DNA of 43,007 nucleotides from positions 1-43,007 of the forward strand of contig JAUCBJ010004978.1 of NCBI GenBank assembly GCA_032718475.1, given 5' to 3'. This document shows, one piece after another, positions 5,191-32,397 of the stretch (position 1 is its first letter; each line of letters begins with the position of its first letter). The notes beneath the pieces are model-generated. The model was not told the DNA's origin. It ran no database searches and saw only the letters and a list, made by a program, of their open reading frames with translations. The stretch comes from Nemertoderma westbladi (Eukaryota > Animalia > Xenacoelomorpha). The translations under genes and the position numbers were made by a program.

Positions 5191-6771
5191 TGTTCGCGGT
5201 ATTTCAACTTTCCATAACGCGAGTTGAATATTTTTGTATTTTATTAAAATTGATTATTCCGATATTACTACTGGGTACGGGACCATGGGTTTTGGGCACA
5301 TTCTATAAACTGGGGGCGATTTATGGGCGAACTTTGGGGCAACTTACAGGGTACGGGAATAATTTCATAGTTATAAGGGCCAGGGGGGGATGGAAAATTC
5401 AAGCAGTATTCAGGTTAGCCTGAGTACTATTAGGCCCTGGCCAACTTCCTGCTGCCTGTAGGGGTGGATTTGGTAATGCGCCAGGCCTAAAGGACAAGGA
5501 CTGCCCTTAGCGGTCCCTGGCCAACAGCAGTTATTACGAGACTGAAAAGAACTCGGAACGCTGACTGCTTGTGTCAGGGATTTGCGACGGGAAACGACAG
5601 CCCTTAGTAGCCAAGCCGTTCTGGTTCTCGATGATCGAACCCTTCGGTGTTCGTGAGGGGTGGAACGGACACGCGAACGGGCGGCCGACTAACGACTGCC
5701 CCCTGAGCTAAGCCGTACTGGTTCTCGATGACCGATCCCTTCGGGGTTCGCGAGGGGTGGGACGGACATGCGAAAGGGCTGGCCACAGGACGGGTTTGAC
5801 GAGGACTGCCCTTAGCGGTCTCTGGTCAACGGCAGCTATTACGAGACTGAAAAGAACTCGGAACGCTGACTGCTTGTACCGGGGATCTGCGACGGGAATC
5901 GACGACAGACCCCTTAGCCAAGCCGTACTGGTTCTCAATGATCGTTCCCTTCGGGGTTCGTGAGGGGTGGGACGGACACGCGACGGGGTCGAAAGACAAA
6001 GGACTAGACCCTACTGGCCTACCGACTGTTCGGAGCAGTTTCTCGGCTGCCGAAGCGACTACGAGCCTGAAAGGGACTCGGAAAGCCTAGGTGGGTGGGT
6101 TTCTGCGATGAACCGACGGACCCCTAGCCAAGCCGTTCTGGTTCTCGATGATCGAACCCTTCGGGGTTCGTGAGGGGTGGAACGGACACGCGAACGGGTC
6201 CACCGACACGACAGACTCCTAGCCAAGCCATACTGGTTCTCGATGACCGATCCCTTCGGGGTTCGAGAGGGGCGGTACGGATACGCGACAGAGTCCACCG
6301 ACTGGACCGACCCTTAGCTAAGCCGTGCTGGTTCTCGATGATCGTTCCCTTCGGGGTTCGTGAGGGGTGGAACGGACACGCGACAGGGTCGACCGACACC
6401 GACACTACGGCACTAAGACCAGGACCAAGGGAAAAATCTGGGGAACATTAGGTAGGCTAAAATCTGAGCGAACAGTGGGTAATTAAATAATATACCGTAG
6501 GGATTTATATTATCGTGTATAATTATTTTGAATATTTGGTGTATATTGATTTGGGGAAGCCCAAAATTATTCTTAATCAGGTTCAACAGAGTTCAGTTAC
6601 ATTAAAGAGTATATCCAACTAATGCAGCTTTTTCTCAACCGCAACCCTGCATCTCAGAAATCATTCCTTCTCCAAAATCAATATCCGGTGACTGGCCGGG
6701 GCTCAGTGGTCTGTAAAGTCACGTCTCCAGCATCGGCGTTTTTCCCCCCTGGTGTTGGGATAACGGCAACA
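5191..6771 (+). repeat. 5' LTR of element A
   Basis: tgttcgcggtatttc...gataacggcaaca; matches 17913-19493 with about 10 substitutions and 2 single-base indels counted by eye. Confidence 0.97.
5498..6391 (+). ncRNA. LTR-internal array of structured RNA hairpins (6 k-turn/UUCG units and 3 loop-E/GAAA units); repeated at about 18220-19113
   Basis: Repeated units with pairable arms, cUUCGg and GAAA tetraloops, GAU-bulge/tandem G.A k-turn signature, and substitutions that mostly preserve pairing. Confidence 0.7.
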
Positions 6772-6979: not shown

Positions 6980-7171
6980 ATGGAAGTATCGATCACACCC
7001 ATTGATATAATCCAAGTTGAGCCAGGAATCTGGCACGTCGAAGTTGAAGTACAAGGAACGAACGTCGGACGATTCAGGATTACCGTTCGGGTGGTCCAAG
7101 CTGAGTACAATACCTACGAGGAACTGTTTTATGACATCGTGTATCTAGCTATCGACGAGGCGTTACAATGA
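6980..7171 (+). CDS. Short upstream ORF (63 aa) overlapping the gag start (ATGA)
   Basis: ATG at 6980; its TGA (7169-7171) overlaps the gag ATG (7168-7170); sequence looks protein-like but no family is recognised. Confidence 0.35.
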   Translation: MEVSITPIDIIQVEPGIWHVEVEVQGTNVGRFRITVRVVQAEYNTYEELFYDIVYLAIDEALQ

Positions 7172-10100
7172 CGACAAATAACGTATCCGATACCGACGAG
7201 ATGGATCACCACACAGACTCGGAAGCCGACGAGGTACCAAACGTCAAGAACATGACCCGTCGGCTAGGGGCTCTCAAAGGCGGAGTAACCCGAGCGTATC
7301 AACGGATGGAGAAACAACTCAAGGGAGTCAAAACCCCCCTCAATGAGGTACAAACTCAGCTTCAAAGTATCCGAAATATCCTACAGCGGTACGAAAGAAT
7401 GATACAGGCGTACCAAGAGCTCGTTCCCTCCACTGATCAGGAAAACTACCCCAAGTTGGAAGAACACGTTGTACATCTAGATGGGTTCCGCAAACAACAC
7501 CGGAGGACCCTCAGCCTTGTGAGAGGCTATGAAGAACAGTATTACAAGAGGGCTGAAAGAACAGACGCGGAATCAGTACGATCCTCCAGCATCAGGACAG
7601 CAGTACATCGAAAGAGAACTGGGTCCGCTAGAAATCAGCACTCCAGCGCTAGGAGCGAGATATCCGGCTCAGCGCGCAGTTCTCAAGGGGCGCCGCCACT
7701 CCGAGACCAACTGCGAGAACGGAAGGCATTAGCCCTCAAAGCTCGGATGGAAGATGAGTATATTCAACTGCAAGCCGAGCAAGATGTATTAGCCGCCGAA
7801 ACACAAAAGCGAGAGGCCGAACAAGTGGCCGAACGGCAGGCCGAACAACGCGAACAGGAGGCCGAACAACATAGACGAGAGGCCGAACAACATAGACGAG
7901 AGGACGAACGGCAGGCCGAACAACGCAAACAGGAGGCCGAACGGCAGGCCGAACAACGCAAACAGGAGGCCGAACGGCAGGCCGAACAACGCAAACAGGA
8001 GGCCGAACAACGCAAACAGTAGGCCGAACGACGCAAACAGGAGGCCGAACAACGCGGACGAGAGGCCGAACGAGAGATCGAACAACGTAAATGGGAAGCA
8101 GAAATGCGTAAACAACACGCCGAGGCCCAAGCAATTCTCATCCACAAAAAGAATGCAGATATTGCAAAACTCGCGGAATACGAAGCCGCACTTATAGAAC
8201 GAGATATTCAACTCTACGAGGACTGGGAAAGGGATATAGATCAGGAATATGAACCAAGCCCGGTACCGGAATTAGAAAAGTCATTTATACCGACAGCGGC
8301 GAAACTTCCGAAACCCGAGATCCCGCCTATCAAACAGTCTACGCTATCGGCACAAGCACCGGTGTTCCATCCCCCACCGGCTACGCTAAAGAATGAGGAA
8401 CATTATTTCCCATCCAACACCACGACAGCGAGTGTACCCAAGTACGAGCCTGAAAAGGACTCGGAACGGGACGCCACTCCCCGATCTAACAACCCATTTA
8501 CATCCACACCACAAACTCGTAGCCGCGTCATTATTAAAACTCCACCTATTATTGATACATCAAGTATGGGAGTGAGTGCCAATAACTATAACCCTCCGAG
8601 TCACTCCGGTTCAGACGACGTCAGCATCATCCGGGCATTGGAGAATCGCCTTGCCATGCCTAAGATGGAGATTCGCACCTTCGAAGGAGATCCCGTCGAT
8701 TACCTCAGATTCAAGAAACGGTTCTTTGCGCAGATCGGATCAACGGACATAGCCGACGCACAGAAATTGGTATATTTATCGCAATACCTGGGTGACAAAC
8801 CACGCAGAATTATTGCATGTTTTGAAGGAGGTTCTCTTGAGGCATACTATGACGCATGGAAAACTCTAGATAAAAGATACGGAAATACTGGAACTATAAT
8901 TAATAAAACTCTAGAGAGACTGATACAGGACGCGGGATCACTAGGGGACCCACAGAACATCCAGGAATTCTCCGACTCTATGAAGGATGCCTACTATACT
9001 CTGAAACCCTTAAATAAGGAGGACCAGGTGAACAACATTCTAAACCTCCGACAGATCGCCCGGAAGTTTCCCGGATGGCTACAAAGTAAGTGGGCTTATA
9101 AATGTGTAGATCTCCGGCGCAGACATCCAGATCGAGATCCTAGCTTCCTTGAAATGTCGGCATTCCTGTACGATATCTCCGAAGCCATGAATGACTCGAT
9201 GTTTTCAAAACAGAGTCTCGCAAAGTTGGACGGAATAGAGAGCAACTCCAGGAGTAAGATAACCCCTCCGAAACCGAGATTCCGCCCCCCACCGGTGAGT
9301 ACGATGGCCATCACCATGGCCGAGGATTCCGACGACGAAGACTACGAGGAACCGACATCCGCCGAGGAATGGGCATGTTATCTCGCGAGTTGGGCACCCG
9401 AAAGGGAAGGCATCACAAATTCCTTGCTCTGTCTCTTCTGTGGGGAGAAACATAAAGTGGAATTCTGCAGAAAGTTTCAGTTCGCCGAACTCGTCCCACG
9501 CTTCGAGGCGATAATGAAACACCGAGGATGCTTCCGGTGTCTTGGAACAGGTCACTATGTTCGGGAGTGCGACCAAAGATCATGCTGTGCTGTCTGTAAC
9601 GACCAACGCCATCACACGCTCCTCCACATCCCCGCGAACTTCGATTTTACTACCCTCCCCTTTCGGATCGAAGCCAGGCGAAGAGGAGAAACAAACCACG
9701 TCTTCAAAGGAACCCGGACAACCCAACGGAGAGAAACCAACCCGTTTAAAATCTCCACCGATACACCACAAGTAACAAATATTTCGGCCACGATTAATCT
9801 TATAAATCGCCGCTACATGGTCTTCGCAAAGGTAATCCCAGTAAGGATCCAAGGAGTCGGCAAATCTTTGACGACACTCGCGTTCCTCGATAACGGGTCC
9901 GACGGAACCATCATCGACCGGGATTTCCTCGAGCAACTCGGCCTAGAATATGAACCTTGTAAACGGCCCATACAAACCATCACCGATAACAGAGAGGTAG
10001 AGTCCGGGGAGGTGCAACTCCAGATGGAAGGAGTGATGAAGGGCTACGAAACGGTTAAGTTAACCATCAAGAACGCCTTGGTACACACAGACCTCCGGGT

Positions 10101-13100
10101 GCGGTTCCGACAATCAGCCGAGTATGCCCCCCTCATACAATTGGACCGAGACGATGTAGACCTGAGGTGTCCGCAGTTGGACGTAAACCGCATCACCCTA
10201 CTGATTGGACTTGATACACCGGAACTACACATCCCCACCGGAGATATCGCCCGATCTATAAAACAGGATGATGGATTTTATGCTGAACGAACAATAATGG
10301 GATGGACACTCTGCGGCATTAAGGAGGAAACTACTGACACCTATACCTACCTTCCCAAATGTCAGATTAAAGAGAATGCAACCTCTGTGGGTTATTGCTC
10401 AGCTTCGGATCTTGACAAGGATTTGTTTCTGGAAACCGAGAAAACCCAACGAGAGATGACGAAATATTTTAATTTGGAGACCCAGGAGTTCGCGGAAAAG
10501 GACGAAAACCCATCCGAAGAGGACCAATATTGTATGGACATTCTCGACCAGGCCACGTTTAAAGACGGACACTGGTGTTCACCTATGTTATGGAAGGACC
10601 CAAACAAACCAATGGCAAACAACGCCAGCATGGCACTTAGGCGACTTAAAGGGATTCTACGCCGGCTGAATGACCAACCCGAGATAAAGGAGAAATATAA
10701 TACCGTAATCCAAGGATATCTCGATGATGGATTAGCAGAAATGGTACCACGGAATGAACTGCAAGGTGGTAAAAGAACATATTATCTCCCAACCCACTAT
10801 GTAGTAGAAGCCCGCAAAGGTGGGAAAATCCGAGTGGTAAATGATGCTGCCGCTATGTACCAGGGCGAATCCCTAAACAGTCAGCTTTACACGGGACCCA
10901 ACATATATAGTACACTCATCGGGGTATTGATCAGGTTCAGGGAAAACCGGGTAGCATTCACCTGTGACATCAAGGCCATGTTTCATCAAGTTCGTACGTT
11001 ACCAAGAGACTCGGACTGTCTACGTATCCTATGGACGGATAAAACGCTAACTCAACAGGAGATTAGCCAACTCACGATAAAGGACGTAGACGTAATGCGT
11101 ATGGTCGTCAGGATCTTCGGCGCTAAGGACTCGCCGGTAGCATGCAGTGACATGCTAAAGAGGACGGCAACTATGTGCGAAAACGAGTTCCCTCCAACCG
11201 TCATAGAAACCATTCGACGATGCTTCTACGTGGACGACGGATGCGCCGGCGCGGATAATGTGGATGAGGCATATCGGCTAGCAATGGGGATGGTAGAATG
11301 TCTAAAGAAAGGAGGGTTTCCGCTCGTGAAGTTCAGATCCCACGACAAAACACTTATGGAAAAGTTTCCGGAGGACATCCGGCTGGAAAATAACAAAATG
11401 TATTCGGAGGATGTGGAACATCGTGTACTCGGGATTGAATGGGACATAGAATCAGACGAATTCATCTTCAAATATAAACCCCTACCCAAGCCTATGACAA
11501 AAAGGGGATGTTTGTCGATAAAAAGCGCCATCTTCGACCCACTAAATTTCATATCTCCAGTAACCTTGGCCGGAATGAACCTGATTAAGGAAATGTGGAT
11601 AGAAGGACTGGGATGGGACGAAGAGCTCCCCCCACACCTCAGCGTCAAATGGAGAAAATGGACAGAGCAGCTCGAACACCTACATCTTATGCGGATACCT
11701 AGACCGCTCTTCCTCGATAAACTACCCACCGATATCTTCAAGCTCCACACCTTTTCGGATGCTTCGAATACCGGAATCGGCGTAGTCACCTTCTTACGGA
11801 GACTAAGTAACGATGGAAATGGCGATACAAGCTTCTTATTCTCCAAAGCAAAGACAGTATCCGGGGAATTCGTAGCAACGATTCCGAGACTCGAGCTACA
11901 AGCTGCAGTTTGGGCAGTAAGACAGAATCGCATGGTCATGCGGAATCTACGGATCCCCATAGAATCTCAACACTTCTGGGTCGATTCGAGTATAGTTCTC
12001 TATTATCTCCACTCTCCATCACGGCGTCACACCACGTTTGTTGCAAACCAAGCCACGGAGATTAAACAGTGTACCGGCCGAGAACAGTGGCATCACGTGA
12101 ACGGGAAGGAAAACCCAGTGGACTTATCAAGCCGAGGCGCCACCCCAAAACAACTCGGTAAAAATAAACTCTGGCTTACAGGCCCGGAATTCCTACGGCA
12201 GCCACAATTAACATGGAGTACCCGATTCGACCCCGAACTCGATAGCGGAAAATACTCCGAGGACGATAAAGAGATCCGTAAAGTCCATCGAAGCAACGCG
12301 GTGGAAATTTATAGTTGTCTGACTGAGCCTGCAAAGGACTCGGGCAGGCACTATAACGTCGCGACGATCACTCAACTAGCGGCGTCTCTACATCGGTTGA
12401 TCGAGCGAACTTCATCAATGAGACGGCTCGTCCAACACGTTATAACCCTTCGTAACTTCCTACGGTGGAAAAACAACAAACCGATAGTTCAACGGAATAT
12501 ACAAGAACTCATTATCGCGGAGAAGTGTATTGTTAGATATATCCAGAGAGAAAGTTTCCCCGATGAATGGGAACAACTTAGTGCGGGCAAAACATTGAAA
12601 CCGGACAGCCCAGTCTACCAACTGAGACCAATGATGGGAAAGGACGGACTGATCCGACTGAATACCCGGATGGCAAACGCACCGGTCGAATATGAGGTTA
12701 AATACCCGGCGCTTCTGCCCGGAATGTCGACACTAGCTAAGCTATTAATTCTACAATGTCACGAGGACAACCACCACGCTGGACAGAATTGGATTATAGC
12801 TAATATAAGACAAAAATATTGGATCACCCACATCCAGCCACTAATCCGGAAAGTGTTGAAACGTTGCTTCACCTGCAGACGTTACCTAGCACCACCAATC
12901 ACCCAAAAGATGGCCGACCTACCAGCCACCCGTCTACAAGCAGATTCCCCACCGTTCTACGTCACCGGAGTGGACTGTTTCGGACCGTTTACGGTCATCG
13001 AACGACGATCCAACATCAAATGCTGGGGAGCCATCTTCACCTGCCTAAGGTCTAGGGCAATTTACCTAGATATCGTGGTAAATCTGACACAACACGCATT

Positions 13101-13932
13101 CATCAACGCTCTGCGTCGGTTCGTGGCGAACAACGGGACATGCCGCCACATGTATTCCGATAATGGTACAAACTTTGTGGGAGGAGAAAGAGAACTTAGA
13201 GAGGCGATCGAGGGATGGTTTACCGATAACACCGCATCCCAAGTCTGGAAGGAACACCAGATACAGTGGCACTTCCAGACCCCCTTAGCACCCCATACGA
13301 GCGGGGTATGGGAGAAACTGATCGACCTAGTGAAACGATCCATGCGCGTCGCTCTAGGCGATACCCGGGTAACCCATGACACCCTCCGCACAACATTCTG
13401 CGAGATCACGGCTACCCTGAACAACCGACCCATTGTCCCTATCCGCGACGACCCCACAGACCTGGAGCCCCTCACTCCTAACCACATACTGGGGAGACCC
13501 AAAACCCACGTTCTCCCGGAAACCATGTTCCCGGATCCCAACGAGATCGCGAAACATACAAACTGGAAAAAGGCCCAAGCGTTGGCAGCGCATTGGTGGA
13601 GAATTTGGGCCCAGGAGTACCTCATAACCCTCCGGACCAGGAGGAAATGGAACAACACCTACCGGAACGTCGCAGTTGGCGACATGGTACTAGTTAAAGA
13701 AGATCTCAAAGACCGCGTTCACTGGCCTGTGGCGCGGGTCGTGACCATACACCCAAGCAAAGACGGACTTGCGAGGACTGTGACGATACGAACGGCATCG
13801 GGCCACTACCAACGCCCTATCCAGAAGCTGTGCCTTCTTGAAGGCAATGACAGTGGTGATTCTACGAGAGGTGATAAGTTCCCTACTCAAGATCCTGCTG
13901 CGGACATTGGTGACAATTACAAACCCGTGTAA
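7168..13932 (+). CDS. gag-pol: BEL/Pao Gag-Pol polyprotein with one in-frame TAG at 8020-8022
   Basis: ORFs 7168-8022 and 8104-13932 share a frame. Motifs: gag FEGDPVDYLRF (about 8680); three Cys/His knuckles (9430-9630); protease AFLDNGSD (about 9880); RT DIKAMFHQV and FYVDD (about 11225); RNase H LHTFSDAS, TIPRLEL, FWVDS; integrase HHCC, GVDCFGP, SDNGTNF, GVWEKLI; C-terminal GDMVLV...WPVARV...RPIQKLCLL. Confidence 0.95.
7810..8075 (+). repeat. Coding tandem repeat in gag (21/33-bp units, EAERQAEQRKQ coiled coil)
   Basis: Repeated gaggccgaacaacgcaaacag / gccgaacggcag units. Confidence 0.9.
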
Positions 13933-14210
13933 CCCTTCTCATCATGTTGACAAACTCTTTTTAACTGTGATGTATCGACAACAAATTATGGACCCCCCTT
14001 AAACCAACTGTAACCACGCAATGGTATTTGTGTTTCCTCGTGTGTTATGTGGAGTCCAGCGTCACCCTGCAGATGTTTCGACTGACGCAGGGTCGTTTAT
14101 GCATTGTTTACCCTGATTTTGGTCATCGGGACCAACGATATTGGATTATTGGAAATGGTAAAGATTTGAAGTGGAATTCATTGTATTCATTGCAGTATGT
14201 TATGTTGTCC

Positions 14211-14621
14211 GTTGCGTGCGCAGTTCGGGGCGTAGGCGGTGTAACGAGTCCAGCTGTAGATCCCGGATTGCCGCGCAACACCCCCTCTATCCCGTTATTC
14301 TGGTGGGTCCATGGTGCATCCACATGACTTCGACGATAGAGGGTTTTATGTTTCTCAGTCGCGTTATTCTGGTGGGACCGTTGCGTGGATTTTGGGGCGT
14401 AGGCGGTGTAACGAGTCCAGCTGTAGATCCCAGAATGTTGCGTAATCCCATCCCACATGACTTCGTCGACTGAGCTTTATGTTGTTGGGAGTGTTATTCT
14501 GGTGGGTCCCTGGTGCATCCACGTGACTTCACTCCCAGCGTCGTCATTGTCCGTTACGTGCGCAGTTTGGGGCGTAGGCGGTGTAACGAGTCCAGCTGTA
14601 GATCCCAGATTGCCGCGTAAC
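14211..14621 (+). ncRNA. Triplicated covarying stem-loop downstream of pol
   Basis: Three copies (14211-14279, 14380-14446, 14553-14621) with an invariant 38-nt core and compensatory changes in the enclosing stem. Confidence 0.65.
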
Positions 14622-15176
14622 ACCCCTTCCACGACAAAGATTAACCAAAGAAAATGATTGAATATAGTTGGAAATGATGAAAAGGATCAGACAACTCTAC
14701 TATAAACCTGAATGATGACGCGTATGCTGATGAAAATGTAATGATGCGCACCCTGGTGCTGCGCTTATAACCAATGATGATAGCCGGGGGGCTATAAACC
14801 CAATGATGATGTGGAAATAAATAAATGTGAAATAAATGGTGGAAATAAATGTGTTGAAATATATGTGGAAATAAATGAAATGAGATGGAATAATAATGAA
14901 ATGAAAAAAGACAAAAAAAAGGTATAAAAAAGTCTAAAGAAAAGAATTGAAAAAAAGAAAGGACAAAAAAGTCATAACACTGGTTGGATATTAATGTATA
15001 GTTATAGTAACTGTAAATGCTGAATGTATTAGCAATAAGATGATAGATGCCTATATAGCAATGTTATTAATAAACTGAATTAAATAAAAAACTGAATTAT
15101 TCTGCTATCGCTATAGTTTCAGACTTTCTGGACTTATAATTAACTGATCTAATTTGTAACGGATATAATCGTAAAT

Positions 15177-17750
15177 ATGGACCCAAATCGCCAAATTATC
15201 GGCGAATTACGTAACACGATAGATCTACTGGAATATTCGCAACCTGGATCCCCTGACTTTGATACAAATTGGAGCACCCTGCTAAATGAGAACGTGCGAG
15301 TCGTTAAATTCACCGGGCGAGAGGGACCGGATTCCAAGAATCTACGAGCCCTCCGGTTAGCCGATGCTAGTACGAGACTGAAAAGAACTCGGAACGCAAA
15401 GGCAACCGGAGGGGACGATTCGTCGTTTTGGGAAACGTTCCGGCAGAGCGTTTACAGATCCCAATGTTTGATCTACGACAACGAGGGAAACGCGACGCCC
15501 ACCTCGAAAGCGATTACGTTGGCGAGATGTCAAAGTTTCGTCGACGACAAGAGTACGTACCTCGCCCACTGGGGAAACCTGTCGGAGTGTACGGCGACGC
15601 TTCGAGAGGAACGCATATCGATTATCCAAAACCGCGACGACTACCAGGAAAAGTACGGGGCGAAAGAATACGGTCGATCCTTAGTCGTCGTCCTCGGAAC
15701 CCTGGACGGTTTGGTACTGGTGTGCCGAATATTCCCGACACCCAGACAGGAAGTGCAGGCAGCCGGAGCGATCTGGTTGCTACCTCCGGAAATCCAAAAG
15801 ATCCTCTTCGACTTCGACGTCATTAAAATCGGGTCGGATATCAAGGCGGACGTCCGGAACGACTACGCGAACGCTCCTGCAGGAAGAAACCGACGAGACG
15901 ACCTCAACGCCCTTAGCCATTGCATCGACACTCAAACGCTACTAGCCTGATTACGATTCGCCGAGTTCATGCGAGGATTCCAAGAGGTGAGACCGACGAA
16001 ATCCGGGATCGGCTACCTCGCTGTGCTAAACGGCGGCATCAACTTCAAACCCCAGAAATTCCGGGACTATAATAAAATATATGGTGGATACCCGGGATTA
16101 GAAATAAAGAGCGAGCGAGAGGGTCGATGGAAGGACGTTGATCGGAAGTGGACGATACACCAAAGGTGGGAGAATCCCGATCGACGGAACTACGTTTACG
16201 TCGTTATGGAATGCTACACCGTCGCTAAGTTTATCTGTAAAACTCTCGATAACCTTATTACGGCGGTCCCCCTTTCCTTCGTCGACTACGACTGGAACGA
16301 GGTCATACACCACGCGTTCAAAGCGGTCGAGAACATTGCACCGGGAGAGACTAAACGCTCGCCGTTATCGATTCCTGGGACGAGAGCGGACCTTACGACA
16401 TCCCTACGATTACCGAACTTCTCGGTGCAGAGGAGCCTCTGATCTCTTCGGAAGGGGAAGAGATATGGCTAAACGAGGGTGTTCTACTCTCCACCCCGAA
16501 GCGACAACTCGAGCCGGTGGCCGCTTACCAACCGGCCGCAAACGGGTTGCCCCCACCGTACCAACTACGGAAGCAGGCGTTTCCTCACCACTCGGCTTCG
16601 GTAGCCCTGCGAGGGAGTTGGTTACTACCTTCGCGTTAAACGACTTCGGCGTTACGTGCCAAAGGTTATCCCCGTATCCTTTCCCGGGTGGCGAAGACTG
16701 GTCGTCGGAGATTCCGAGTACCAGCAATCAACAGACCCGCTCAGCGATATTGGTCGAGAAGGGCCCCAGCGCTGCGCCGACTCCCGACGATCTCCTCGGA
16801 ATCCCTCCGTCGAAAACCCCGGCACCTCTTTGCCGACAAGCGGTGGCTACTACACCCTCCGTTCCTCAGGATCCCATGCGACTAACCCGTTGGTACGCCG
16901 AGCAAACTGAATGGATCCACCGCCAGAGACGGTCGTCCGAGTTGAGACCAGCGGGACACAAAGAAGGAAAAGCCTAGCATTCCGCGGGCTACCGACCACC
17001 GCGAATATTCCGAAGAGTGACCGACGACTCGAATATTACGTCGGCCTCCCGATTCCGATATTCCCCGGTCGAGAGATGCAATTGGAGGTTTGCGGCAACT
17101 GCGGTTCGGAACAGTGCCCACGCGGTAGAAGGAATCGGGTTACCGATTCGTGCCTCCAGCTCATCGGGATACTCTATTGCCCATACTGCGCGACATCGGG
17201 CCACGACGTTTCCGTCTGCCCGATCCTATATAACCTCTGTACCACATGCAGTTTCCGTGGACATTCCTCTAGCCCCCGCTGCTATATCAAATGTCCAACC
17301 AAAGACGTTACCGCTATGGGAAATATGGTCATGTTTGAAACATACGCAAACAGCCACTTAAAGACCAAGGTTCGGAGAAACGCTCGGAATATCGCGCAGG
17401 AGATGGCGTGCGGGTATTTCTCCTTCCCGGAACGCCTCCACACGTCGGCCATGCTACCTTTCCATTACGTGGATCTGCTACTGAGCGCCGGATTATTCGG
17501 TCCATTTGAAGTCATTAGACGATTATACTCGTATAAAGAGGAGTTCGGTGACGGAGATTGGTTCCTAGAGGCACGCAAATCTGAGTTGGAAAGACGAACC
17601 GACATGATCCCTATGCCATCGAAAGGAAGAGCCGCCAGGAGACAAGCCGAAGCGTTACTCACGATGGATGTGGACGCTCCTCTACCAGCCATAGCGATCG
17701 ATGAGAGTCGACGGGCGAAGAGACGAAAGGTGTATCAGAAAAAGAAATAG
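15177..17750 (+). pseudogene. Extra ORF of element A: DnaQ/WRN-like 3'-5' exonuclease-like domain, linker, Cys/His zinc cluster, basic tail (about 860 aa if repaired)
   Basis: LPPEIQKILFDFDVIKIGSDIKADV, CIDTQTL, SGIGYLA and W...YVYVVMECY follow the WRN/RNase D exonuclease motif order; CGNCGSEQC, CPYCATSGHDVSVC and CTTCSFRGH...C; ends RRAKRRKVYQKKK. One TGA (15948) and about 3 inferred frameshifts. Confidence 0.7.
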
Positions 17751-17903: not shown

Positions 17904-17911
17904 GGGGGGGA
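17904..17911 (+). promoter_or_regulatory. Polypurine tract (plus-strand primer) of element A
   Basis: ggggggga ending 1 nt before the TG of the 3' LTR. Confidence 0.8.
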
Positions 17912-17912: not shown

Positions 17913-19493
17913 TGTTCGCGGTATTTCAACTTTCCATAACGCGAGTTGAATATTTTTGTATTTTATTAAAATTGATTATTCCGATATTACTACTGGGTAC
18001 GGGACCATGGGTTTTGGGCACATTCTATAAACTGGGGGCGATTTATGGGCGAACTTTGGGGCAACTTACAGGGTACGGGAATAATTTCATAGTTATAAGG
18101 GCCAGGGGGGGATGGAAAATTCAAGCAGTATTCAGGTTAGCCTGAGTACTATTAGGCCCTGGCCAACCTCCTGCTGCCTGTAGGGGTGGATTTGGTAATG
18201 CGCCAGGCCTAAAGGACAAGGACTGCCCTTAGCAGTCCCTGGCCAACAGCAGTTATTACGAGACTGAAAAGAACTCGGAACGCTGACTGCTTGTGTCAGG
18301 GATTTGCGACGGGAAACGACAGCCCCTTAGTAGCCAAGCCGTTCTGGTTCTCGATGATCGAACCCTTCGAGGTTCGTGAGGGGTGGAACGGACACGCGAA
18401 CGGGCGGCCGACTAACGACTGCCCCCTGAGCTAAGCCGTACTGGTTCTCGATGACCGATCCCTTCGGGGTTCGCGAGGGGTGGGACGGACATGCGAAAGG
18501 GCTGGCCACAGGACGGGTTTGACGAGGACTGCCCTTAGCGGTCTCTGGTCAACGGCAGCTATTACGAGACTGAAAAGAACTCGGAACGCTGACTGCTTGT
18601 ACCGGGGATCTGCGACGGGAATCGACGACAGACCCCTTAGCCAAGCCGTACTGGTTCTCGATGATCGTTCCCTTCGGGGTTCGTGAGAGGTGGGACGGAC
18701 ACGCGACGGGGTCGAAAGACAAAGGACTAGACCCTACTGGCCTACCGACTGTTCGGAGCAGTTTCTCGGCTGCCGAAGCGACTACGAGCCTGAAAGGGAC
18801 TCGGAAAGCCTAGGTGGGTGGGTTTCTGCGATGAACCGACGGACCCCTAGCCAAGCCGTTCTGGTTCTCGATGATCGAACCCTTCGGGTTCGTGAGGGGT
18901 GGAACGGACACGCGAACGGGTCCACCGACACGACAGACTCCTAGCCAAGCCATACTGGTTCTCGATGACCGATCCCTTCGGGGTTCGAGAGGGGCGGTAC
19001 GGATACGCGACAGAGTCCACCGACTGGACCGACCCTTAGCTAAGCCGTGCTGGTTCTCGATGATCGTTCCCTTCGGGGTTCGTGAGGGGTGGAATGGACA
19101 CGCGACAGGGTCGACCGACACCGACACTACAGCACTAAGACCAGGACCAAGGGAAAAATCTGGGGAACATTAGGTAGGCTAAAATCTGAGCGAACAGTGG
19201 GTAATTAAATAATATACCGTAGGGATTTATATTATCGTGTATAATTATTGTGAATATTTGGTGTATATTGATTTGGGGAAGCCCAAAATTATTCTTAATC
19301 AGGTTCAACAGAGTTCAGTTACATTAGAGAGTATATCCAACTAATGCAGCTTTTTCTCAACCGCAACCCTGCATCTCAGAAATCATTCCTTCTCCAAAAT
19401 CAATATCCGGTGACTGGCCGGGGCTCAGTGGTCTGTAAAGTCACGTCTCCAGCATCGGCGTTTTTCCCCCCTGGTGTTGGGATAACGGCAACA
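17913..19493 (+). repeat. 3' LTR of element A
   Basis: Direct repeat of 5191-6771, same length, directly after the PPT. Confidence 0.97.
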
Positions 19494-19689: not shown

Positions 19690-19718
19690 GATGTTGGCCC
19701 TTAAAAGGGCCGTTTTGG
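19690..19718 (-). promoter_or_regulatory. Histone mRNA-type 3' stem-loop
   Basis: Minus strand CCAAAAC-GGCCCU-UUUA-AGGGCC-AACA fits GGYYYU-UYUN-ARRRCC with an A-rich 5' flank; no histone CDS is adjacent. Confidence 0.65.
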
Positions 19719-20225
19719 TTTGAGTTCAGTTTCATTATGCCACAGAATCACGATCCTCTCTAAAAGTAACATATCTGATTCTGTCAACCATACCGTTTTC
19801 TTCACAGTCATCGAAGATTGCACTGGAACTTGTCATTTTAATTACATCTGTTAGGCCTAATTCAGTAAAATTACCAAAGAAACGCTAATACCGGTAACTG
19901 AATACTGTAATATATTGCAATACAGCAAAAGTCAGGCAGTTATAACTGTTTAAACAGGGTTGCAAATCTGATGACAAACGCTGGATAAATTATATTTTTT
20001 TTAAATTGTCATTAAATCACAAATATTGAAAAGTAAGATGATAGGTTTAAAGAATTGCCTATAAAATTTTTATACTTTCGTATTGGACCCTAAACTTTTG
20101 CATGCAAGCTCATAATTCAATTATCTTTCGAATATTACACTAATTATATTACTATAATTAATTAATTACAATAATTAATTATATACACTATTATATTACA
20201 CTAAAGTACATGTCTGGCAGTTTTG

Positions 20226-21106
20226 TACGGTGGCTGAAAGCGGCCAAACAATATTAATTAAGCGTTTTTTTTTTTAATTTCAACCCGGGTTGAAAATAAT
20301 ATCAACCCGGGTTGAAAATAATATCAACCCGGGTTGAAAATAATATCAACCCGGGTTGAAAATAATATCAACCCGGGTTGAAAATAATATCAACCCGGGT
20401 TGAAAATAATATCAACCCGGGTTGAAAATAATATCAACCCGGGTTGAAAATAATATCAACCCGGGTTGAAAATAATATCAACCCGGGTTGAAAATAATAT
20501 CAACCCGGGTTGAAAATAATATCAACCCGGGTTGAAAATAATATCAACCCGGGTTGAAAATAATATCAACCCGGGTTGAAAATAATATCAACCCGGGTTG
20601 AAAATAATATCAACCCGGGTTGAAAATAATATCAACCCGGGTTGAAAATAATATCAACCCGGGTTGAAAATAATATCAACCCGGGTTGAAAATACTTGCA
20701 TGTGACCAATGACAATTCGTTCTATGAACTCTTTTGTTGATGAGGTGTGGCGGGAAATATAAATATAATATATATATGTAGGTATCACTCAGCCAATGCA
20801 GCAATGCAATGTCCGACTGTAGGCCTACTGCAAACAACTGGAGTAAACAGAAGTATAGCGATACATATATATTTACATTTATATTTCCCGCCACACCTCA
20901 TCAACAAAGAGTTCATAGAACGAATTGTCATTGGTCATATGCAAGTATTTTCAACCCGGGTTGATATTATTTTCAACCCGGGTTGATATTATTTTCAACC
21001 CGGGTTGATATTATTTTCAACCCGGGTTGATATTATTTTCAACCCGGGTTGAAATTAAAAAAAAAAACGCTTAATTAATATTGTTTGGCCGCTTTCAGCC
21101 ACCGTA
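20226..21106. mobile_element. Non-autonomous foldback DNA transposon, IS3EU-like
   Basis: TACGG...CCGTA termini; long near-perfect TIRs; 6-bp TSD gttttg (20220-20225, 21107-21112), which is single in the uninterrupted opposite arm of the host MITE. TAY..RTA ends with a 6-bp TSD match IS3EU. Confidence 0.75.
20280..20692. repeat. 22-bp tandem array (19 copies) with the 14-bp palindrome TCAACCCGGGTTGA; 5 inverted copies at 20951-21052
   Basis: Identical caacccgggttgaaaataatat units, counted directly. Confidence 0.95.
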
Positions 21107-21999
21107 GTTTTGGTTGGCCATGGGGGGGCAATCATTATGGAACACCCGGTATTGACTACCGTGTTTTGTTTAGTTAGAATAACGTGCCACTATAAACTGC
21201 TCTTTTCCCTTCATTTAAATATTTAACATTGAGTGAGATATTATTTCATGGACTAACTTACTTCCGAGAATGAGGCCGTGAGGATCTACCAGAAAGAATT
21301 TAACTCTAAACTTTGTTGGTTACAGTGGTACGTCATTCTAACCAAAACAATAAACTTAAGTCAATATAATATTTTTATTTTTGAGAATAATCAGCTGCCA
21401 TTTGCGTCAAATTTTCGTCGAACTTCCAGTGTGTAAAAAGTTGTAGGACATTAATTTAATCAGAAATGAATATTCTAGAAACGTTACAGAGGATTTTATC
21501 TTCCATCCCCTTTGCTTCAGTTACATAAATATGTAACTACAATATTGTAACATGTCATCAGTCATTATTATGAATTCCGATATCATCGTAATACAACTAA
21601 GCCAATACATTAATGTGCCTACATGATAAAATTGTGATGACTGTATTTGCCATTCATATCTTCAGTTTCCACGTGGAACAGCCAGTTCAGAAACACGACC
21701 ATCACCATCACTAAGCAACAAGGTTAATTTTTATTTTCTGTTACATGGAAGGCTGAGATAGCACCACATTAACTCTCAAGGTTGAACACTCAATAATTAT
21801 GCAATCCGTTTCTTTAATCCCCCAAGCAGAAGCTTCTCATATCGCTCGGCCCGGGATCAAACCGGGGACTTCCAGCTAGATGCAAAGTTTCCACTGTACC
21901 ATATAGCTATTACAATGCAAACATACAAGATGATTCATAAAATAAAAGGAATCATACATAATTAGTACAATTATTATGTTATTTACAATATAAACTAAC

Positions 22000-22524
22000 C
22001 TGATTAGGTTCCCTCAAAAATAACTCCACATCATGTAGGTTTACAATGAGATCACAGCTCCTGAAGTCATACTTCAAGTGGTAATGAAGTTTCCCAACTG
22101 TTTCCTCGCCAATGGCCACCGAACCCCGATGGCGAAGTATCGGGGAGTGTTTGTTGTAGAGATCGATGTTGAGGCCGCTGGAGCTGGCGCTGGGAGACAG
22201 CAGAGTGGGATCTTCGGAGGTGGGTGTGGGAGAGGCCGCAAGGGGTTGCAGCAGTGTTGGAGTCACCGATGATGTCTCCAACGAGAACGATGAACCCGAA
22301 CCTCTGTGTGTTGGTTGGATGGATTGAAGTATGCTTGGCTGTGTGGGTGACTGGGTATCTGAGCCTTCAGCAGGTGGGCTTACACGTATACCCCCTGCAG
22401 GGATCTCTTTGTATTTGCTGTTTATTTTGCGCACCGAGCTGATCTTGAAGGCAAGGACAATGGAAAGGGCGATTATGAACGTTCCAAACAGGACACTGAT
22501 ACTCAGAGCCAATTGGCTGATCAT
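22000..22524 (-). CDS. First coding exon of a synaptotagmin-like gene (N-terminal TM, Ser/Pro linker, start of C2A)
   Basis: Hydrophobic N-terminus followed by basic residues; GKLHYHLKYDFRSCDLIVNL resembles C2 beta1-beta2; acceptor ttttaatag ending at 22573; donor CAG|gttagt at 22000/21999. Confidence 0.75.
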
Positions 22525-25104
22525 TTTTAATGCTTAGTTGCCATGGTAATCATTAAATACACCAGGAAACACCTATTAAAAACATGTAAAATTATATGAT
22601 ATTAGACCATGAAATGAATTGGTTGGTTGAGTGAGTGAGTTATCGAATTCAAAACGTCTCTAATGATTTTCCCAATATCTCTACGCAGGTATATAACCTA
22701 AATCAAAGGTGACTCGCAAAGTTTTCAGACTCAGAGGTTTTCAGACTAGCAATGAGTTTATGGTTATTTTTTCTCCCACCGGGATATGAAGCACCTTCTT
22801 AAATACTTGGAACTTCACCTGAAGAGCAGGATATATAAAGGCAATTTGAAGTATAGACCTATTTTCCTATTATGATTTTAGTTCAATTAATATACTAAAG
22901 AACAGATATTAATTAACAGAAATAAAGTGATTTAGATAAAATACCACAATAAAATAATATATTTGGTAAGTATGAAATAGCTTTGACTAACCTGTCCTAT
23001 AATAACACCTGTAGAAGATGTTGAGACTAACTAATAATGCCTCAATCCCTTCTCTACGAATACCCCCACATGTTTGTCTACCGCAATATCACAATATTGT
23101 GCAAAAATTTCAAATTAAAACAAGCAAAATGGGATATTCAATAATGGGTAAATCAATTGCGATAGTTCCGGATAGGTTTTAGCTCGTGCACGGTGCACCA
23201 ACTGATGCGTTCCGTTCGATTGATCTCCCCTTCAATACGTAGCGGATGGAAGAATATCTAAGGAAGGGGACGACCAACATTGAAAGGTTATAGTTGGGAG
23301 TCAGCCCAGAGGTTGGCATTTATTCTCAATCCTGGAGTTACAGGCCACCCTGCTGAATGCGACTATCTACCTATGTGATTGGTAGTTTCTTTTGCAGATG
23401 CCAGATGTCCAGGTACATTTACGCAGGTAACACCAACTACAGCATTACGTGTGCTGCCATTGGTTGACATTCCTGTTTCTTCAAGGAGCGGGTGTCAGGT
23501 AGTAATACTGCACTCGTCGTGCAATTGTATCTTGCAAGTAAGGGGAACAAGAAGAATGGATGGGAAGCAGGTTCAAATGTATTCATTGTATGCGCCCAGT
23601 GTATGAATTGTGGGACAGGATTTATATTTGAGCTAAGAAGAGTAGGCATGTAAAACGGATGTAAGATGTTGTGTAATATTATTGATATATTATGTTAGCC
23701 ATTTCTAAGGCCAAAGGGCTAAAAAGTGAGATGATCTTACATTTATAATTTTAATTACTAATTGTGAAGGATTTAAAGTTTAAAGTTTTTGACAATGTGC
23801 GAGAGGCATATCGGGAATTATCGATCTCGCCTTAATGGTAAATTGTCCTTTAATAGTGTAAAGGATTTCTCACGCCCTCAGTGCGTGGCAAGCTCCCAGA
23901 CGGCTATTGTTCATTTTGCAAGTAGAGGGGGTTGGGTGGGGGGGAATTTCGAAAAAATAAAGCTGTACCTGTTGTATTGACTTTATTTTATTGTTTTGGT
24001 TAGAATAATCGCAAACGTCGCGATCTTCGCGAAATTTTGTTCTTACGAATACTATAGGTGGACAAATTTGAATAAAATCGTGAAGTGTGCGAAATTTCGC
24101 GATTTTCGCCGCGGAAATTTTCAAAATCGTTGACCTAATGTCGGAAACCTACGCAAAACTGATATAAATAATAACTTGATGCATATTACAGGAAAATCTT
24201 GCATGGTTTATTAAATGTAGGATCATAAATTATGTTAGCAATTCCACCACCTTAGCGTTCAGATACCTCTGCATAGAAATCTACACTACTACTACTAGGA
24301 TCGGCATACTGCATTGCAGCTGCATTTTTAAGAATGCTGTGCCGGCTTGTCGACAAAATTGCGCCGCCACAACTCCCTATCACCCATGACATTTGCATCG
24401 TCAATTCCCTTTAAGATGCGTCTCAAGAAAGTCATGGGCTGTCCACCATGCTTATTCACTCCATGAGGCTGCCAAAGCAAAAGATTATGCACTGGCTGGT
24501 CCTCACGGCGAAAGCAATGTCCTGCAAAGCGGAGGCGAGTTTGTAGAAATTTGTACCTGTAGAAATCTACAGGTACAATATGATTACTGTTATGAGAATA
24601 TTTTAGAATGTTATAACTACCATCATTTTATTTATGCAGTATATATCAATTCAATTCATTAAATAAAATGAAATGAAATGAAATTGAATATAATACCCGC
24701 CATGTTCTGTGAACTAAGTATAGGTTCTATACAGCATATACAATAGCATATAATCATAATCTTTCCCCACCTCATTGTCTATTCCCCACCCCAGTCAGCC
24801 ATTTCGTAAAAAACGAAAATCATAAATCGCTATATTGGAACTAGTTCACTGCATCTGGACCAGTTCACTCTGAATCAGTACAGATCACGCAACACTGACG
24901 ATCTATTCATATGAATTTCTTATTTGGTAAAAAGATCAATGTATCATAAAGGTCACCCGCATCCCTCCCAAATCTAATAAACAAATACGTGCAGCATTCA
25001 ATCGTTGAGTCAGCAAGATGTAATTAACAATTCCCATCGAAGGGCTAGTTGCCAGCCTATAATTATCCTTTAAAAGTCGATATGCACCTGGAATTGCCAA
25101 TTAT

Positions 25105-26653: not shown

Positions 26654-27900
26654 TGTAAAGTACAGTAGTATACCGCCTACCGGATCCTAGTAATGAAGTA
26701 CGTTACTGTAGAATCCAGCATTGTATACGGGCTCGTACAGTATCTGACAAGAAATCCCAGTCCAGGGTGTCTAAATAAATAGATACTAAGTATACAAACT
26801 ACTACTGGCGAGGAACGGAGCCTGGTGTCTATTCTAATACTTGGACGAATCAAATGCCCAGGCTAACTAGACAAACAGGATGCCCGGCCTCTAACCGGTG
26901 AGGCAGATGTACAGTCTACAGATACAGACCAAACTCACGGGAAAACAATCCCCGCGTAGCGAATCCTAACTATTGCTAATGGACCTAAAATACTGTAAAC
27001 TTGCTGCGCTGTGATTTATATATATGGGTATAATACGAGCTAGTGGGACAACAGAACTAGCGTAAAACAATACTGCCGACAGGAAAATAGCAGTCAAAAG
27101 GGGTGCCTCTACACCTGAGTAAAACAAATACCAAATTTCTCCTCAAATAATAGAATATTCTTACCGTAAGTCTGCAGCTTAGATCTCAAGACGTGTGTGT
27201 GTGTGTGTGTGTGTTAAGATAAAACAATTTTGGTGTATCGCCGTTATACTAGGTTTTGGTGATTTTATCAAAATAACAATGCTGGGTGCTAGCTACTCGA
27301 ATAAGCTAGTCGCACGCTGTAGGCGCAATTCTTATAAACTGACGTCAAAAGGGCTCTCTCCTCCTTCATTCACAACTCAACCGGGCAATTACGGTGTTAG
27401 TAACTACACCCGTGATCGGCACTAATACCAGATTCTGATTGTGAGATAAGGAAATAGGTGTTAATTTACTAGCTAGCTGTAGTAGTAGTGCCGTAGTAGT
27501 AGTAGTAGCTGATCTGGTATATAATTTGATTCTAGAATTTTGTTACTGCGGTGGGCTGCAGTAAATACCTATCAGTACTTTGCAAGGGCGCGGTAGGATG
27601 TTAGTAACCTCCCTTAGCCAAATGTGTTCTGGTAGCAGAAAACTGCCTCTTGCCTGATCAAATACTTTGGAATCAGACAGGTGAGTCAAACTATAAGGCC
27701 TACAGAGCTAACCGGTACTGTACTGTCAGTACTGCAAATCACCAAATTATAAAGCGTGCTATTCACACCTAAGTGCACTTGCGCAAACTGACGAACAGCA
27801 ATAGCTCGCACCTGTAGGAGATACAGGTTGATCCGGGTTTTTCCCTGTCTCAATCTGAGATATTTGATCCTAAATTTTACGGCGTCCCAGGATGGCGTAA
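26654..27900 (-). repeat. LTR-like direct repeat of element B (3' LTR)
   Basis: Colinear with 37002-38200 from tgtaaagt to ggcgtcccagga; many more differences than the LTR pair of element A. Confidence 0.85.
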
Positions 27901-28234
27901 ATACTAAGTACTGCGTAAATATAAAACCTTCGTACATACATACATACAAATACGGATTTACTATCTAATTTATCAAGGCTTAGTGCATAAAATATAAAAC
28001 TTCGGTAATCCAAATTAAACAAATTAACAAATTAAGGCAAATAATTTCAAATCCTTCGTAATACATATAATATTGCAAATATACATAATAAATTTATCAA
28101 ATGAAATCAGTTCAATATAAACAAAACATAATACGCTAAAATAATTTCCAAATTGAGTTGTGTTAATTTCCAAAAGTGTCCTCCAAGATCTTAAAAGTTT
28201 GTCCTGCTGGTTTCTAGACATCATCTCCTGAGCG

Positions 28235-29885
28235 CTAATCGATAACGGTCCCAATCATGCGCTTAGTAGGATCGGGTTGAGCCTCTGTGACGCTAGGAGG
28301 GAGTTTTAGGGGTGGGACCAACCCGTCCGCCGTCACCTCACTCTCCGATGTCATCTTAACCCTCATTGGTTCGGGCAAAGCCAATCCTGCTTTAAAACCA
28401 TTTTCGCGCAAGACGTCTGCCTCGTCCAATATACACCAGGTCACGCGTTTGTAGTAAAATGCGCTCCGATAAGCCCAAGCAATCGAATGCCAGGCTCCCC
28501 GATTCCACTGTTCGATTCGCAGTTTGTCGAACTCTCCAGCGGGTATCCATGGTTCACCATGGTCTGAAAGTTCCATGTATTCTCATTATCTGGGTGAACC
28601 AGTAGGAAATAGTCCCATACAAACTTAAAGCCACTATCCAATGGCAATATATCTAGTACCTCCTGTCAGTTTCGAATGTGCCATCTCCGATCCATAATCA
28701 AATCGTCCGCATCAGATATCCTTGCAGGATGCAAGGTGCGATATCCGTCCCCATGCAATCAACTTCCTTTAAGTTGGTAAAATGTGGATGCACGTTGCGT
28801 ACGATTTTCTGGACGATTATTCTACGCAACTCCGCCGCCTCTAATACATCGCCAAACGTTACCGATGGGAGGAAATCCAGGTTCGAAATGATCTCTGGAT
28901 GCTCCACTATGGGGATCTCGTAGGTCGTATCCTCTCGAGGCGGTATGCTGATAGGAAATTGGTTGTCCTCGCGACCGGCACTATCGCTTGGGTAGAGTAG
29001 AGTAGATTCTCGCATCATCTCGACGTGAAGTATCTGTAGTTGAGCGAAGGTAATGCTATCAAAGAGTTCGGGTGTCATTTCCTTGGGTTCGGTTTGATCC
29101 TGGGATATCCAATAGAATGGTAGGCTCGCGAGCATTCCACCGAACTTCTCAATCTTACCTTTGTCGTACACCTTGTATCCCCTATATAGGCTAAGAGCTT
29201 CCCGCTTCTCCTGTGTCGACTTGTTGGACTCGTCTACTACCATATTGTAGATGTCCAGTTCGACTAGTTTGGGTTCGTAAATCACAATCTACCCCGCGTT
29301 CGGTCCACTCATCTTAAACGAGTGATACGGATTCATCAAGGGGTATCCACCTTCTTGATAACGCAGACTCTGATGGTTTGGGCATCGCGCTAATATCGGC
29401 TCGGGGTTCTCCGTGTTCAAGTGCATAGGAATCGCATTGTCTTTCGCACGCATACATTCTCCACATTTATAGAACAGTTTATAAATGGAGAATGCTTCCT
29501 TAGTCTCCAGGTCCACTCCTCGAGCACGTCTATAAAGGTGCATCCAATCGAATTTGTCCCTAGCTGCAAGCTAGGGTTCCCTCGCCGTCAAATATTGCAG
29601 CATGTGATATAATCGGCGCATCTCTGTGTCGGTACAGTGTGGATACTTGTTTGGACTTGGTAGGCCTGCGGGCCTTCCGGTGAGTGTCTCCCTTTGTGTA
29701 ATGGGTTTGTCTGAGTCCTTAAGCACTTTATTAATCTCCACGGTCTTACCTTTACTGTCAGAACTCAGTGAGTTGACTGGTAGTAATGGTTTCAGCTCTA
29801 TGGTATCAATGTGTTCCTGTGGGCTCGTAAGCTTCCTAACGTTAGTCATGCGTTTAGCCATAGGCTGTAAGTCTAGTATTTTCAA
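28235..29885 (-). pseudogene. Degenerate extra 3' ORF of element B, unknown product (about 550 codons)
   Basis: ORFs 29571-29885, 29289-29543 and 28698-29285 share a frame separated by single TAGs, followed by frameshifted 28441-28647 and 28235-28576; contains CGEC...CPNH. Confidence 0.6.
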
Positions 29886-30049
29886 TTAGCGGAGTGTGAT
29901 ACCTGTATTTACATTTGGATGGGCACAACCCATACTTGCAATACCTGTAACCACACTATCAAGGAAGTCAAAGTAGGTAAGTTGGTAATACCTAGTTTAG
30001 TACTAGTCTGCTCCAATGGGTTTGCAGCGTCATAGCACATGTCATTACT

Positions 30050-30520
30050 TTCTGGTTGATAGTTTAGTGGAAAGTCTGGTAGACAGTCTGGTGAGGCGTC
30101 CGGCGAACAGTCTGGTGAGATGTCTGGTGAAACATATCACGAAACATCCGGCGAAATGTTCTGTCATAAGTCCCATGGAAAGTCTGGCATAGCATCTGGC
30201 AGAGTGTCTGGTCTAAAGTCTGGTGGACAGTCTGATGGAACTAAATGTTCAATGAAATGAACTGGAACGAAGTGTCTGGTGGAAAATTTGGCGAAATTTC
30301 CGGTAGACAATTGGTCAAAAGATCCAAAAAACAATCTGGCAAAGAATCCAGAGAATAATCTGGTGGACAGTCTGGCGAATAATCTGGCAAGATGTTTGGT
30401 GAACAATCTGGTGAACAATCTGCTGAAATCCCCCACGGAACTTCCGGTGAAAGATTTGTTGGAACGTCTGGTCGAATGTCTGGTGAGACATCTGGCGTAA
30501 TGTCTGGTCTATTGTCCAGG
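30050..30520. repeat. Degenerate 12-bp tandem repeat (tctggtgaacaa-like) inside element B
   Basis: 12-nt period; reads PDxx repeats on the minus strand. Confidence 0.8.
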
Positions 30521-30639
30521 TCATTTGATTTTATTCGTCCTTGTTTCCTCTTGACCTTGGTGCTGGCTTTTGCCTTCGACTTGACAACAGTATCAATTTT
30601 TATCTCAGCACCTTCCCGGCACATTCATTCATCCGATGG

Positions 30640-31725: not shown

Positions 31726-32397
31726 TTGGTAAGTTTCTGGCGGAAGATCTAAATTTCAGTCTGAAGTTGCGCATTGTATTGCATATGGGCCGTCTCATCA
31801 TGCAACAGCTGCTGCCGTATTGACTTAAGTCTTTTCAAGACAAGCGGGTAGTTGTTAACAAGCTTGAGCCATGGCACCACAACATCCCAACTTCGTAGTG
31901 GCCATCGTAGTGGTTGCTGGTAGGCTTGCAAGCCTTCCAGTGTCACTAGTCAGCATCGAAACGTTGTGAGGCGGTTTGACAACCTTTTGATCTGTTGGTA
32001 GGCTCGCAAGCCTTCCAAGATCAGCGATCGGTGTCGAAGCCTTGCAGATGGGGTCAACGACCTACGGATGTGTCAGTAGGCTCGCAAGCCTTTCAAGATC
32101 CTCGTTCGTTGAGACATCCACAGCATCAACCCTTTGGTCTTCGGTAGTCGATACAACCTGTTCCGCTGCAAGTAGCTGTAAGTTAGAGGTCCGTGTGGTC
32201 TCGTCCAAGTCTGTTACGTCGGTGTTGGTAGCGACGTAAGACTGTCGTGGTACTGTCTGTACAGTGGGACCACAGGAATGTGAGGGAGAATTGACTAACG
32301 TAGTAGTTAATAGACTACATGTGCTGAAAACGTCGTCCTCCTGGTCACTTACCTCTAGTGAACGCACAGGCGCTCTCGTATACCAACCCATGGGAGT

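Follow-up and report, generated by a model that had tools for sequence, protein, structure and literature searches.

The genome of Nemertoderma westbladi contains a BEL/Pao LTR retrotransposon with a third gene (ORF3) between integrase and 3' LTR, and the protein this gene specifies appears to join an RNase D/EXD-like domain of the DEDDy type to a separate cluster of zinc knuckles. The nuclease-like domain has been kept under purifying selection in sister copies of the element, and its first metal-binding motif, ExoI, seems to have been lost along the way, so that the protein may bind RNA rather than cut it. The window, that is, the whole stretch of DNA that was analysed, comprises 43,007 nucleotides of contig JAUCBJ010004978.1 (assembly GCA_032718475.1).

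A BEL/Pao element with a third gene

The host element spans 14.3 kb, and its two LTRs are 99.4% identical (10 mismatches and 2 gaps); the 5-bp flanks on either side agree at four of five positions. Its gag-pol ORF carries, in this order, DUF1759, protease, Peptidase_A17, an integrase zinc domain (Integrase_H2C2), and DUF5641, with Pfam matches at E 3.9e-38, 1e-28, 3.9e-14, and 6.7e-8. Because of this domain content we file the element as a BEL/Pao LTR retrotransposon, and the paired LTRs and the Pao-type domain order bear out the same assignment in an initial annotation of the window. As that annotation also stated, ORF3 (15177-17750; ATG at 15177, stop codon at 17748-17750) is a sense ORF that follows pol (gag-pol ORF, 8023-13932) and precedes the 3' LTR (17913-19493). 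All the motifs quoted from it are present, namely LPPEIQKILFDFDVIKIGSDIKAD, IDT, SGIGYLA, YVYVVME, CPYCATSGHDVSVC, CTTCSFRGH, and RRAKRRKVYQKKK. The features of the element are collected in Table 1.

Table 1. Features of the BEL/Pao element and of its third gene (positions in the window)
Feature	Position	Strand	Remarks
5' LTR	5191..6771	+	1581 bp, TG...CA
gag, 5' part	7168..8022	+	in-frame stop 8020-8022 falls within a repeat
Remaining gag-pol, same frame	8023..13932	+	DUF1759, zinc knuckle, protease, Peptidase_A17 (Pao), integrase zinc domain, DUF5641
Spacer, non-coding	13933..15176	+	three ~83-nt repeats and an A-rich tract
ORF3 N-terminal region	15177..15551	+	about 125 aa, predicted helical (low confidence), without family match
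ORF3 DEDDy-like 3'-5' exonuclease-fold domain	15552..16265	+	in-frame stop 15948-15950 in this copy
Expected ExoI position, IIQNRDDYQE	15621..15650	+	D-x-E absent in either register
ExoII Asp, D225	15849..15851	+	posterior at least 0.95; all 59 bacterial domains have D in this column
ExoIII-like Y341-x3-E345	16197..16211	+	posterior about 0.5-0.7; Y-x3-E also in both relatives
Pro/Ser/Thr-rich linker	16360..17090	+	three frame changes in this copy
Zinc cluster	17091..17294	+	one atypical Cys motif and two CCHC-type knuckles
Conserved region 3' of the knuckles	17295..17560	+	common to P0002
Basic NLS-like tail and stop	17709..17750	+	a basic tail also ends P0002
G run, polypurine-tract-like	17904..17911	+	directly before the 3' LTR
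3' LTR	17913..19493	+	1581-bp direct repeat of the 5' LTR, TG...CA

In this copy ORF3 is interrupted by one in-frame stop (15948-15950) and by three frame changes, which fall within the linker, near 16360-16430, 16540-16690, and 16935-16975, and the copy is unable to make its protein. We treat the pieces as one gene because both ends match an intact relative, P0002 (see below), in the same order. At 16540-16690 and 16935-16975 this copy is unlike most sister contigs over short blocks, and the same comparison over 5.9 kb of pol revealed no such divergent blocks. It possibly comes from a minor sub-lineage whose ORF3 was already decayed.

Several repeats accompany the gene. A 27-nt sequence in the 5' part of ORF3 (15371-15397) has identical copies at 5535, 5840, 18257, and 18563, that is, two per LTR, and a 64% copy in gag near 8423-8469; a shared cis-element, or a trace of template switching when ORF3 was captured, could account for it. 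Within each LTR (5490-6460 and 18215-19185) there are six copies of a ~88-nt unit with a hairpin-like centre, interleaved with ~47-nt units, and an Rfam scan of these units gave no match. Three ~83-nt repeats lie in the spacer at 14205-14629, and the A-rich tract follows them. Two AG dinucleotides near 15120-15126, picked out by eye, could provide a splice acceptor for ORF3.

Relatives of ORF3 and assignment of its domain

A HMMER scan of 1.84 billion representatives, for which the query was the N-terminal part of ORF3 only, recovered two proteins at E <= 0.001 (E 3.1e-7 and 3.2e-5). Both P0002 (648 aa) and P0003 (434 aa) are unnamed ENA singletons; P0002 comes from a 9.4-kb contig. P0003 has the nuclease-like domain in common with ORF3, and P0002 has the whole ORF3 layout, with 30% identity at both ends: an exonuclease-like domain, a linker, three zinc knuckles, and a basic tail. 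In tblastn, P0002 matched the window colinearly at 15678-16085 (E 1.5e-14) and at 17082-17546 (E 2.8e-8), and since the HMMER query covered the N-terminal part only, the second of these matches is independent of that search. The part of P0002 that matches the knuckles resembled retroviral nucleocapsid (E 3e-4), which agrees with the zinc knuckles initially proposed at the C-terminus of ORF3; a PDB sequence search with the ORF3 knuckle region itself yielded no significant match.

Direct searches with ORF3 were otherwise negative. The Pfam comparison suggested in the initial annotation found no match in ORF3, NCBIfam likewise found none, and PF01612 reached only E 0.2 on P0002. Only chance matches were returned from PDB sequences. 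A word-indexed protein search of 5.8 billion clusters with the ends of ORF3 detected no close cellular homologue, and another query returned only P0002. The ORF3 family was not found in metagenome, viral, and prokaryotic contigs or in phages, no relative turned up in 301 bacterial genomes, where a helicase match was dismissed as chance, and an Rfam scan gave no match.

We therefore rely on profile comparison for the family assignment, which is transitive, via P0002 and P0003, because the ORF3 domain taken by itself matches the bacterial profile only weakly (HHalign 7.8%, E 0.004) and in hmmsearch does not outscore its shuffles. When a three-sequence domain profile (ORF3, P0002, and P0003) was aligned in HHalign with 59 bacterial PF01612 domains, comprising RNase D, EXD-like, and polymerase exonuclease domains, it matched with a probability of 92%, a pairwise E of 6.3e-7, and a score of 47.2. 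The reversed profile scored 10.5, and 40 column shuffles had a mean of 13.3 and a maximum of 18.0. P0002 alone reached 93%. In Atlas, where a score below 0.9 is a lead only, the P0003 domain scored 0.94, with 24 of its 30 matches in the PF01612 set, and P0002 scored 0.86 to a PF01612 plus zf-CCHC cluster drawn mostly from Euglenozoa; its second match, EXD1-like by name, scored 0.77.

The AlphaFold models were unreliable (mean pLDDT 33 and 35), too poor for the structural check proposed in the initial annotation to confirm the fold. Foldseek with the low-confidence ORF3 model placed EXD2 at all of ranks 1-6, in line with the proposal, but none of these matches was significant (E 0.42-1.0; pLDDT 35). 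EXD2/WRN-type exonucleases (PDB 6k17 and relatives) have an L.D..V.K.G motif in common with ORF3; EXD2 is an active enzyme. Neither VIA-align nor the P0002 model recovered a nuclease, and the VIA-align rows, which reflect the helical N-terminus only, were discarded as evidence of fold. The HHalign profile and the Atlas matches of the relatives, and weakly Foldseek, support the DEDDy/RNase D/EXD-like domain initially claimed, and point to a relationship between the ORF3 domain and DEDDy RNase D/EXD-type exonucleases.

ORF3 had initially been set apart from env on the grounds that it has no signal peptide or transmembrane segment. A hydropathy scan upheld the distinction: neither the signal peptide nor the C-terminal membrane anchor of an envelope gene was found, and the peak in the C-terminal part of ORF3 was only 1.24. 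A caveat is the stretch of residues 168-186, internal to the nuclease-like domain, with a Kyte-Doolittle mean of 2.08. It aligns with a stretch present in both relatives, each of which peaks at only 1.2 over its full length, and is modelled, at low confidence, as a beta-hairpin; for these reasons we do not read it as a membrane helix.

Catalytic residues

The Asp and Glu of ExoI, the Asp of ExoII, and the Tyr and Asp of ExoIII are invariant in the bacterial domains (59 of 59). The corresponding columns read D, E, D, Y, E in P0002 and D, E, E, Y, E in P0003; both relatives, known here from their protein sequences alone, thus keep the ExoI D-x-E, unlike ORF3. The ORF3 sequence has D225 at ExoII, the Asp already recognised in the initial annotation, Y341-x3-E345 at ExoIII, and IIQNRDDYQE at ExoI, where D-x-E was found in no register. 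Its absence had been noticed before, but at TATLREE, which is the wrong place, the true site being IQNRDDYQE near 15621-15650. The register at ExoI is ambiguous: MAFFT selects D155/Q157, the hydrophobic pattern fits Q151/R153 better, and a profile of P0002 and P0003 leaves the ORF3 motif unaligned. As MAFFT sets D155 on the first Asp, D155, D225, and E345, plus E158, could still bind metal. Divergent sister contigs, read by eye in their loose ends, are variable just upstream and keep Q-N-R(-D-D), so the ExoI loss does not seem private to this copy.

At ExoIII, the substitution of Glu for Asp reported in the initial annotation is real, but its interpretation as a sign of inactivity does not hold, because Y-x3-E is present in all three proteins and two of them have an intact ExoI. 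The Glu appears instead to be a conservative, family-wide change and not decay. Judged from the alignments, it is the lost ExoI that would signal inactivity of ORF3.

Sister copies and selection

Sister sequence of the stretch was present in five of the nine sequencing runs listed; RNA runs were absent from that list, which carries no information on expression. Contigs from three runs span all 30 bins, in identity bands from >99% to <90%, and single contigs of run X4 (records 17 and 23) extend from ORF3 into the spacer and into the 3' LTR. Over 15570-15965, 27 of the 40 listed differences (59 in total) were synonymous, where 24-32% would be expected (binomial p no greater than about 4e-6), and the raw differences give a rough dN/dS of 0.15-0.23; 29 of the 40 come from one contig, about 15% divergent. 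Read in the other two frames, the same 40 contain 10 and 2 synonymous changes. No indel was among the sister differences listed for this interval (40 of 59). The check on sister copies by tblastn and dN/dS that the initial annotation had called for is thereby answered for the nuclease-like domain of ORF3, which is under purifying selection. In the zinc-knuckle part three of six listed differences were synonymous, too few to tell. All 12 indels among the differences listed for the wider stretch lie outside ORF3, but one contig or more carries a gap within the linker. We found no intact full-length ORF3 among the sister contigs examined.

A contig of a divergent subfamily in run X4 ends, on the sense 5' side, at 15243, about 60 nt past the start of ORF3, in what looks like a cDNA template-switch oligo. 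Although labelled 'DNA?', run X4 may consist of cDNA, which would hint weakly at sense transcription.

Comparison with known systems

DEDDy ORF3s have been published from the Juno and Vesta LTR retrotransposons of bdelloid rotifers and from Athena elements by Rodriguez, Kenefick and Arkhipova, who already raise 3'-end processing, silencing, and an analogy with EXD1/Maelstrom (PMC5408684); a review repeats the account (PMC5718144). The suggestion that the architecture is new in kind is therefore not supported. New here are the BEL/Pao host, an RNase D/EXD-like domain paired with a knuckle cluster separate from it, and, as the alignments indicate, the loss of ExoI under selection. The rotifer Juno and Vesta elements are Gypsy-like, whereas the present one is BEL/Pao. 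Nematode Cer-type BEL elements were reportedly drawn with an exonuclease domain by Malik et al. in 2000. A literature search, which had most subscription papers outside its reach, found no paper on an exonuclease ORF in BEL/Pao, and the one Cer13 paper that came up was unrelated.

In Juno and Vesta, ORF3 is likewise an RNase D-like DEDDy gene downstream of pol, in the env position and without envelope features, and Vesta2 and Vesta5 are noted to have a Cys-His-Cys motif (PMC5408684). The catalytic acids of the rotifer proteins are intact (DEED), unlike here, where ExoI is lost, and the long linker and the separate C-terminal knuckle cluster of the N. westbladi gene also set it apart. A DEDD exonuclease domain followed by CCHC knuckles recurs in TbRND (Trypanosoma brucei RNase D; PDB 7c42), a cellular, active enzyme with four fingers and a 28-residue linker (PMC7797062). 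ORF3, in contrast, has two or three fingers, a ~240-residue linker, additional regions at both termini, and no ExoI. Structure 7c42 stood at E 4.4 in the search with the P0002 knuckle region, and the TbRND-type link in Atlas (0.86, 163 shared features) concerns P0002 only. EXD1 is alike in having a DEDD fold that lacks the catalytic acids and serves there as an ssRNA-binding module; it differs in being a piRNA factor of the host that has an Lsm domain and a dimerization hook and lacks zinc knuckles (PMC4712191). An EXD1-type Lsm domain had no Pfam match in the N-terminal region of ORF3, for which the structure model is poor.

Proposed function of ORF3

Our best reading, which we hold to be about evenly poised between right and wrong, is that the ORF3 product is a non-cutting RNA-binding helper acting on the element's own RNA. 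We favor a binding module because selection holds the domain after loss of the ion-binding motif, and because the knuckles and the basic tail point to nucleic-acid binding. An ancestor would have taken up an active trimmer of the RNase D/EXD type that had CCHC fingers, a state represented by P0002, and this lineage would then have lost the first metal-binding motif while keeping the fold. The emptied pocket could hold an RNA 3' end and the knuckles grip single-stranded RNA, with inactive EXD1 and the fingers of the trypanosome RNase D as precedents. In EXD1 the DEDD residues are missing and the inactive protein binds ssRNA through its dead core (PMC4712191). The most economical target would be the element's own RNA, which, once bound, might be shielded from 3'-end trimming or small-RNA processing, or be routed and packaged.

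The main rival takes ORF3 as an active but atypical 3'-5' exoribonuclease of the TbRND kind, in which the knuckles hold RNA while a rearranged acidic site shortens element RNA, primer tRNA, or host small RNAs from the 3' end. We consider this possible though rather doubtful. ExoII D225 and ExoIII Y341/E345 are retained; D155 and E158 lie near ExoI, with only a synonymous change at E158 among the listed differences; and P0002 has D-x-E, D, and Y-x3-E. The rotifer acids are altered (DEED) yet intact (PMC5408684), and TbRND binds its substrate with CCHC fingers (PMC7797062). Set against this, no register of ORF3 offers D-x-E, at the end of the hydrophobic strand, where the first Asp normally stands, ORF3 has a Gln, the relatives' profile leaves the motif unaligned, and in TbRND the Asp and Glu of ExoI are described as binding the catalytic ions directly (PMC7797062). 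It is improbable, in our estimate, that ORF3 suppresses host silencing as a decoy of EXD1, Nibbler/Mut-7 or Maelstrom-type factors that sequesters piRNA intermediates or partners, and we think as little of a variant in which a dead nuclease with zinc fingers would bind piRNA/siRNA intermediates or cap the 3' end of element RNA against host trimmers. Were it true, the element would encode an RNA-silencing suppressor from the same fold as host EXD1. The mimicry of EXD1, Nibbler or Maelstrom and the Egalitarian-like adaptor put forward in the initial annotation stand as hypotheses. Orthology to EXD1, Nibbler/Mut-7, or Maelstrom is not demonstrated, and the EXD1-like second Atlas match of P0002 (0.77), which favors the idea, is below 0.9 and hence a lead only; no Lsm, HMG, or other partner domain was matched in ORF3. 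The host does have many divergent copies of the family (3281 contigs in run X1, in four identity bands), and dead DEDD folds are described as acting in piRNA biogenesis (PMC4712191), but the rotifer study found no unambiguous link between ORF3 and copy number (PMC5408684).

Two further readings fare worse. Four breaks in the ORF3 of this copy, although its LTRs differ by only 0.6%, and the lack of an intact full-length sister among the contigs examined might suggest a recently captured host gene or retrocopy that decays neutrally inside the element. We regard such a passenger as very unlikely, and for the nuclease-like domain as largely refuted already, in view of the synonymous excess between subfamilies about 15% apart, the absence of indels among the differences listed at 15570-15965, the sister contigs that join ORF3 to spacer and to LTR, and the failure to find a close cellular homologue in searches of 5.8 billion clusters. 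That the nuclease resemblance misleads, and ORF3 has some unrelated fold or encodes an env-like protein, seems to us scarcely credible: the ORF3 sequence has no direct significant match and contains one hydrophobic 19-mer, but the profile, language-model, and Foldseek leads converge on PF01612/EXD2, the three Exo regions follow one another in the correct order, and zinc knuckles with a basic tail suit a nucleic-acid-binding protein.

The element would extend the DEDDy ORF3 arrangement to BEL/Pao, in a layout like that of the trypanosome RNase D. The jobs of non-envelope third genes in animal retrotransposons are mostly unknown, and the published DEDDy cases were never assayed. One lineage without ExoI yet under selection, and relatives that keep it, form a natural contrast between cutting RNA and only binding it, which therefore becomes testable, as does the question of whether retrotransposons carry their own counter-silencing factors.

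Other features of the window

A second, older BEL/Pao element lies on the minus strand at 26654-38203, with LTRs 87.5% identical and a Peptidase_A17 match at E 2.7e-37. Its pol is truncated before the integrase and gives way to a 12-nt-periodic repeat tract. Broken ORFs with Cys/His motifs at 28235-29885 matched neither Pfam nor ORF3, P0002, or P0003, and may represent a third gene of a different kind. A minus-strand stem-loop (19690-19715) immediately beyond the 3' LTR of the first element resembles the histone mRNA 3' element but scores below the Rfam threshold. Positions 20187-21145 hold a tandem array of quasi-palindromic 22-bp units that includes an inverted block; it is possibly a MITE or a minisatellite. 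The ORF at 21979-22533 (minus strand) has an N-terminal hydrophobic segment and no significant Pfam match; its end resembles the start of a C2 domain, and it is probably a host exon.
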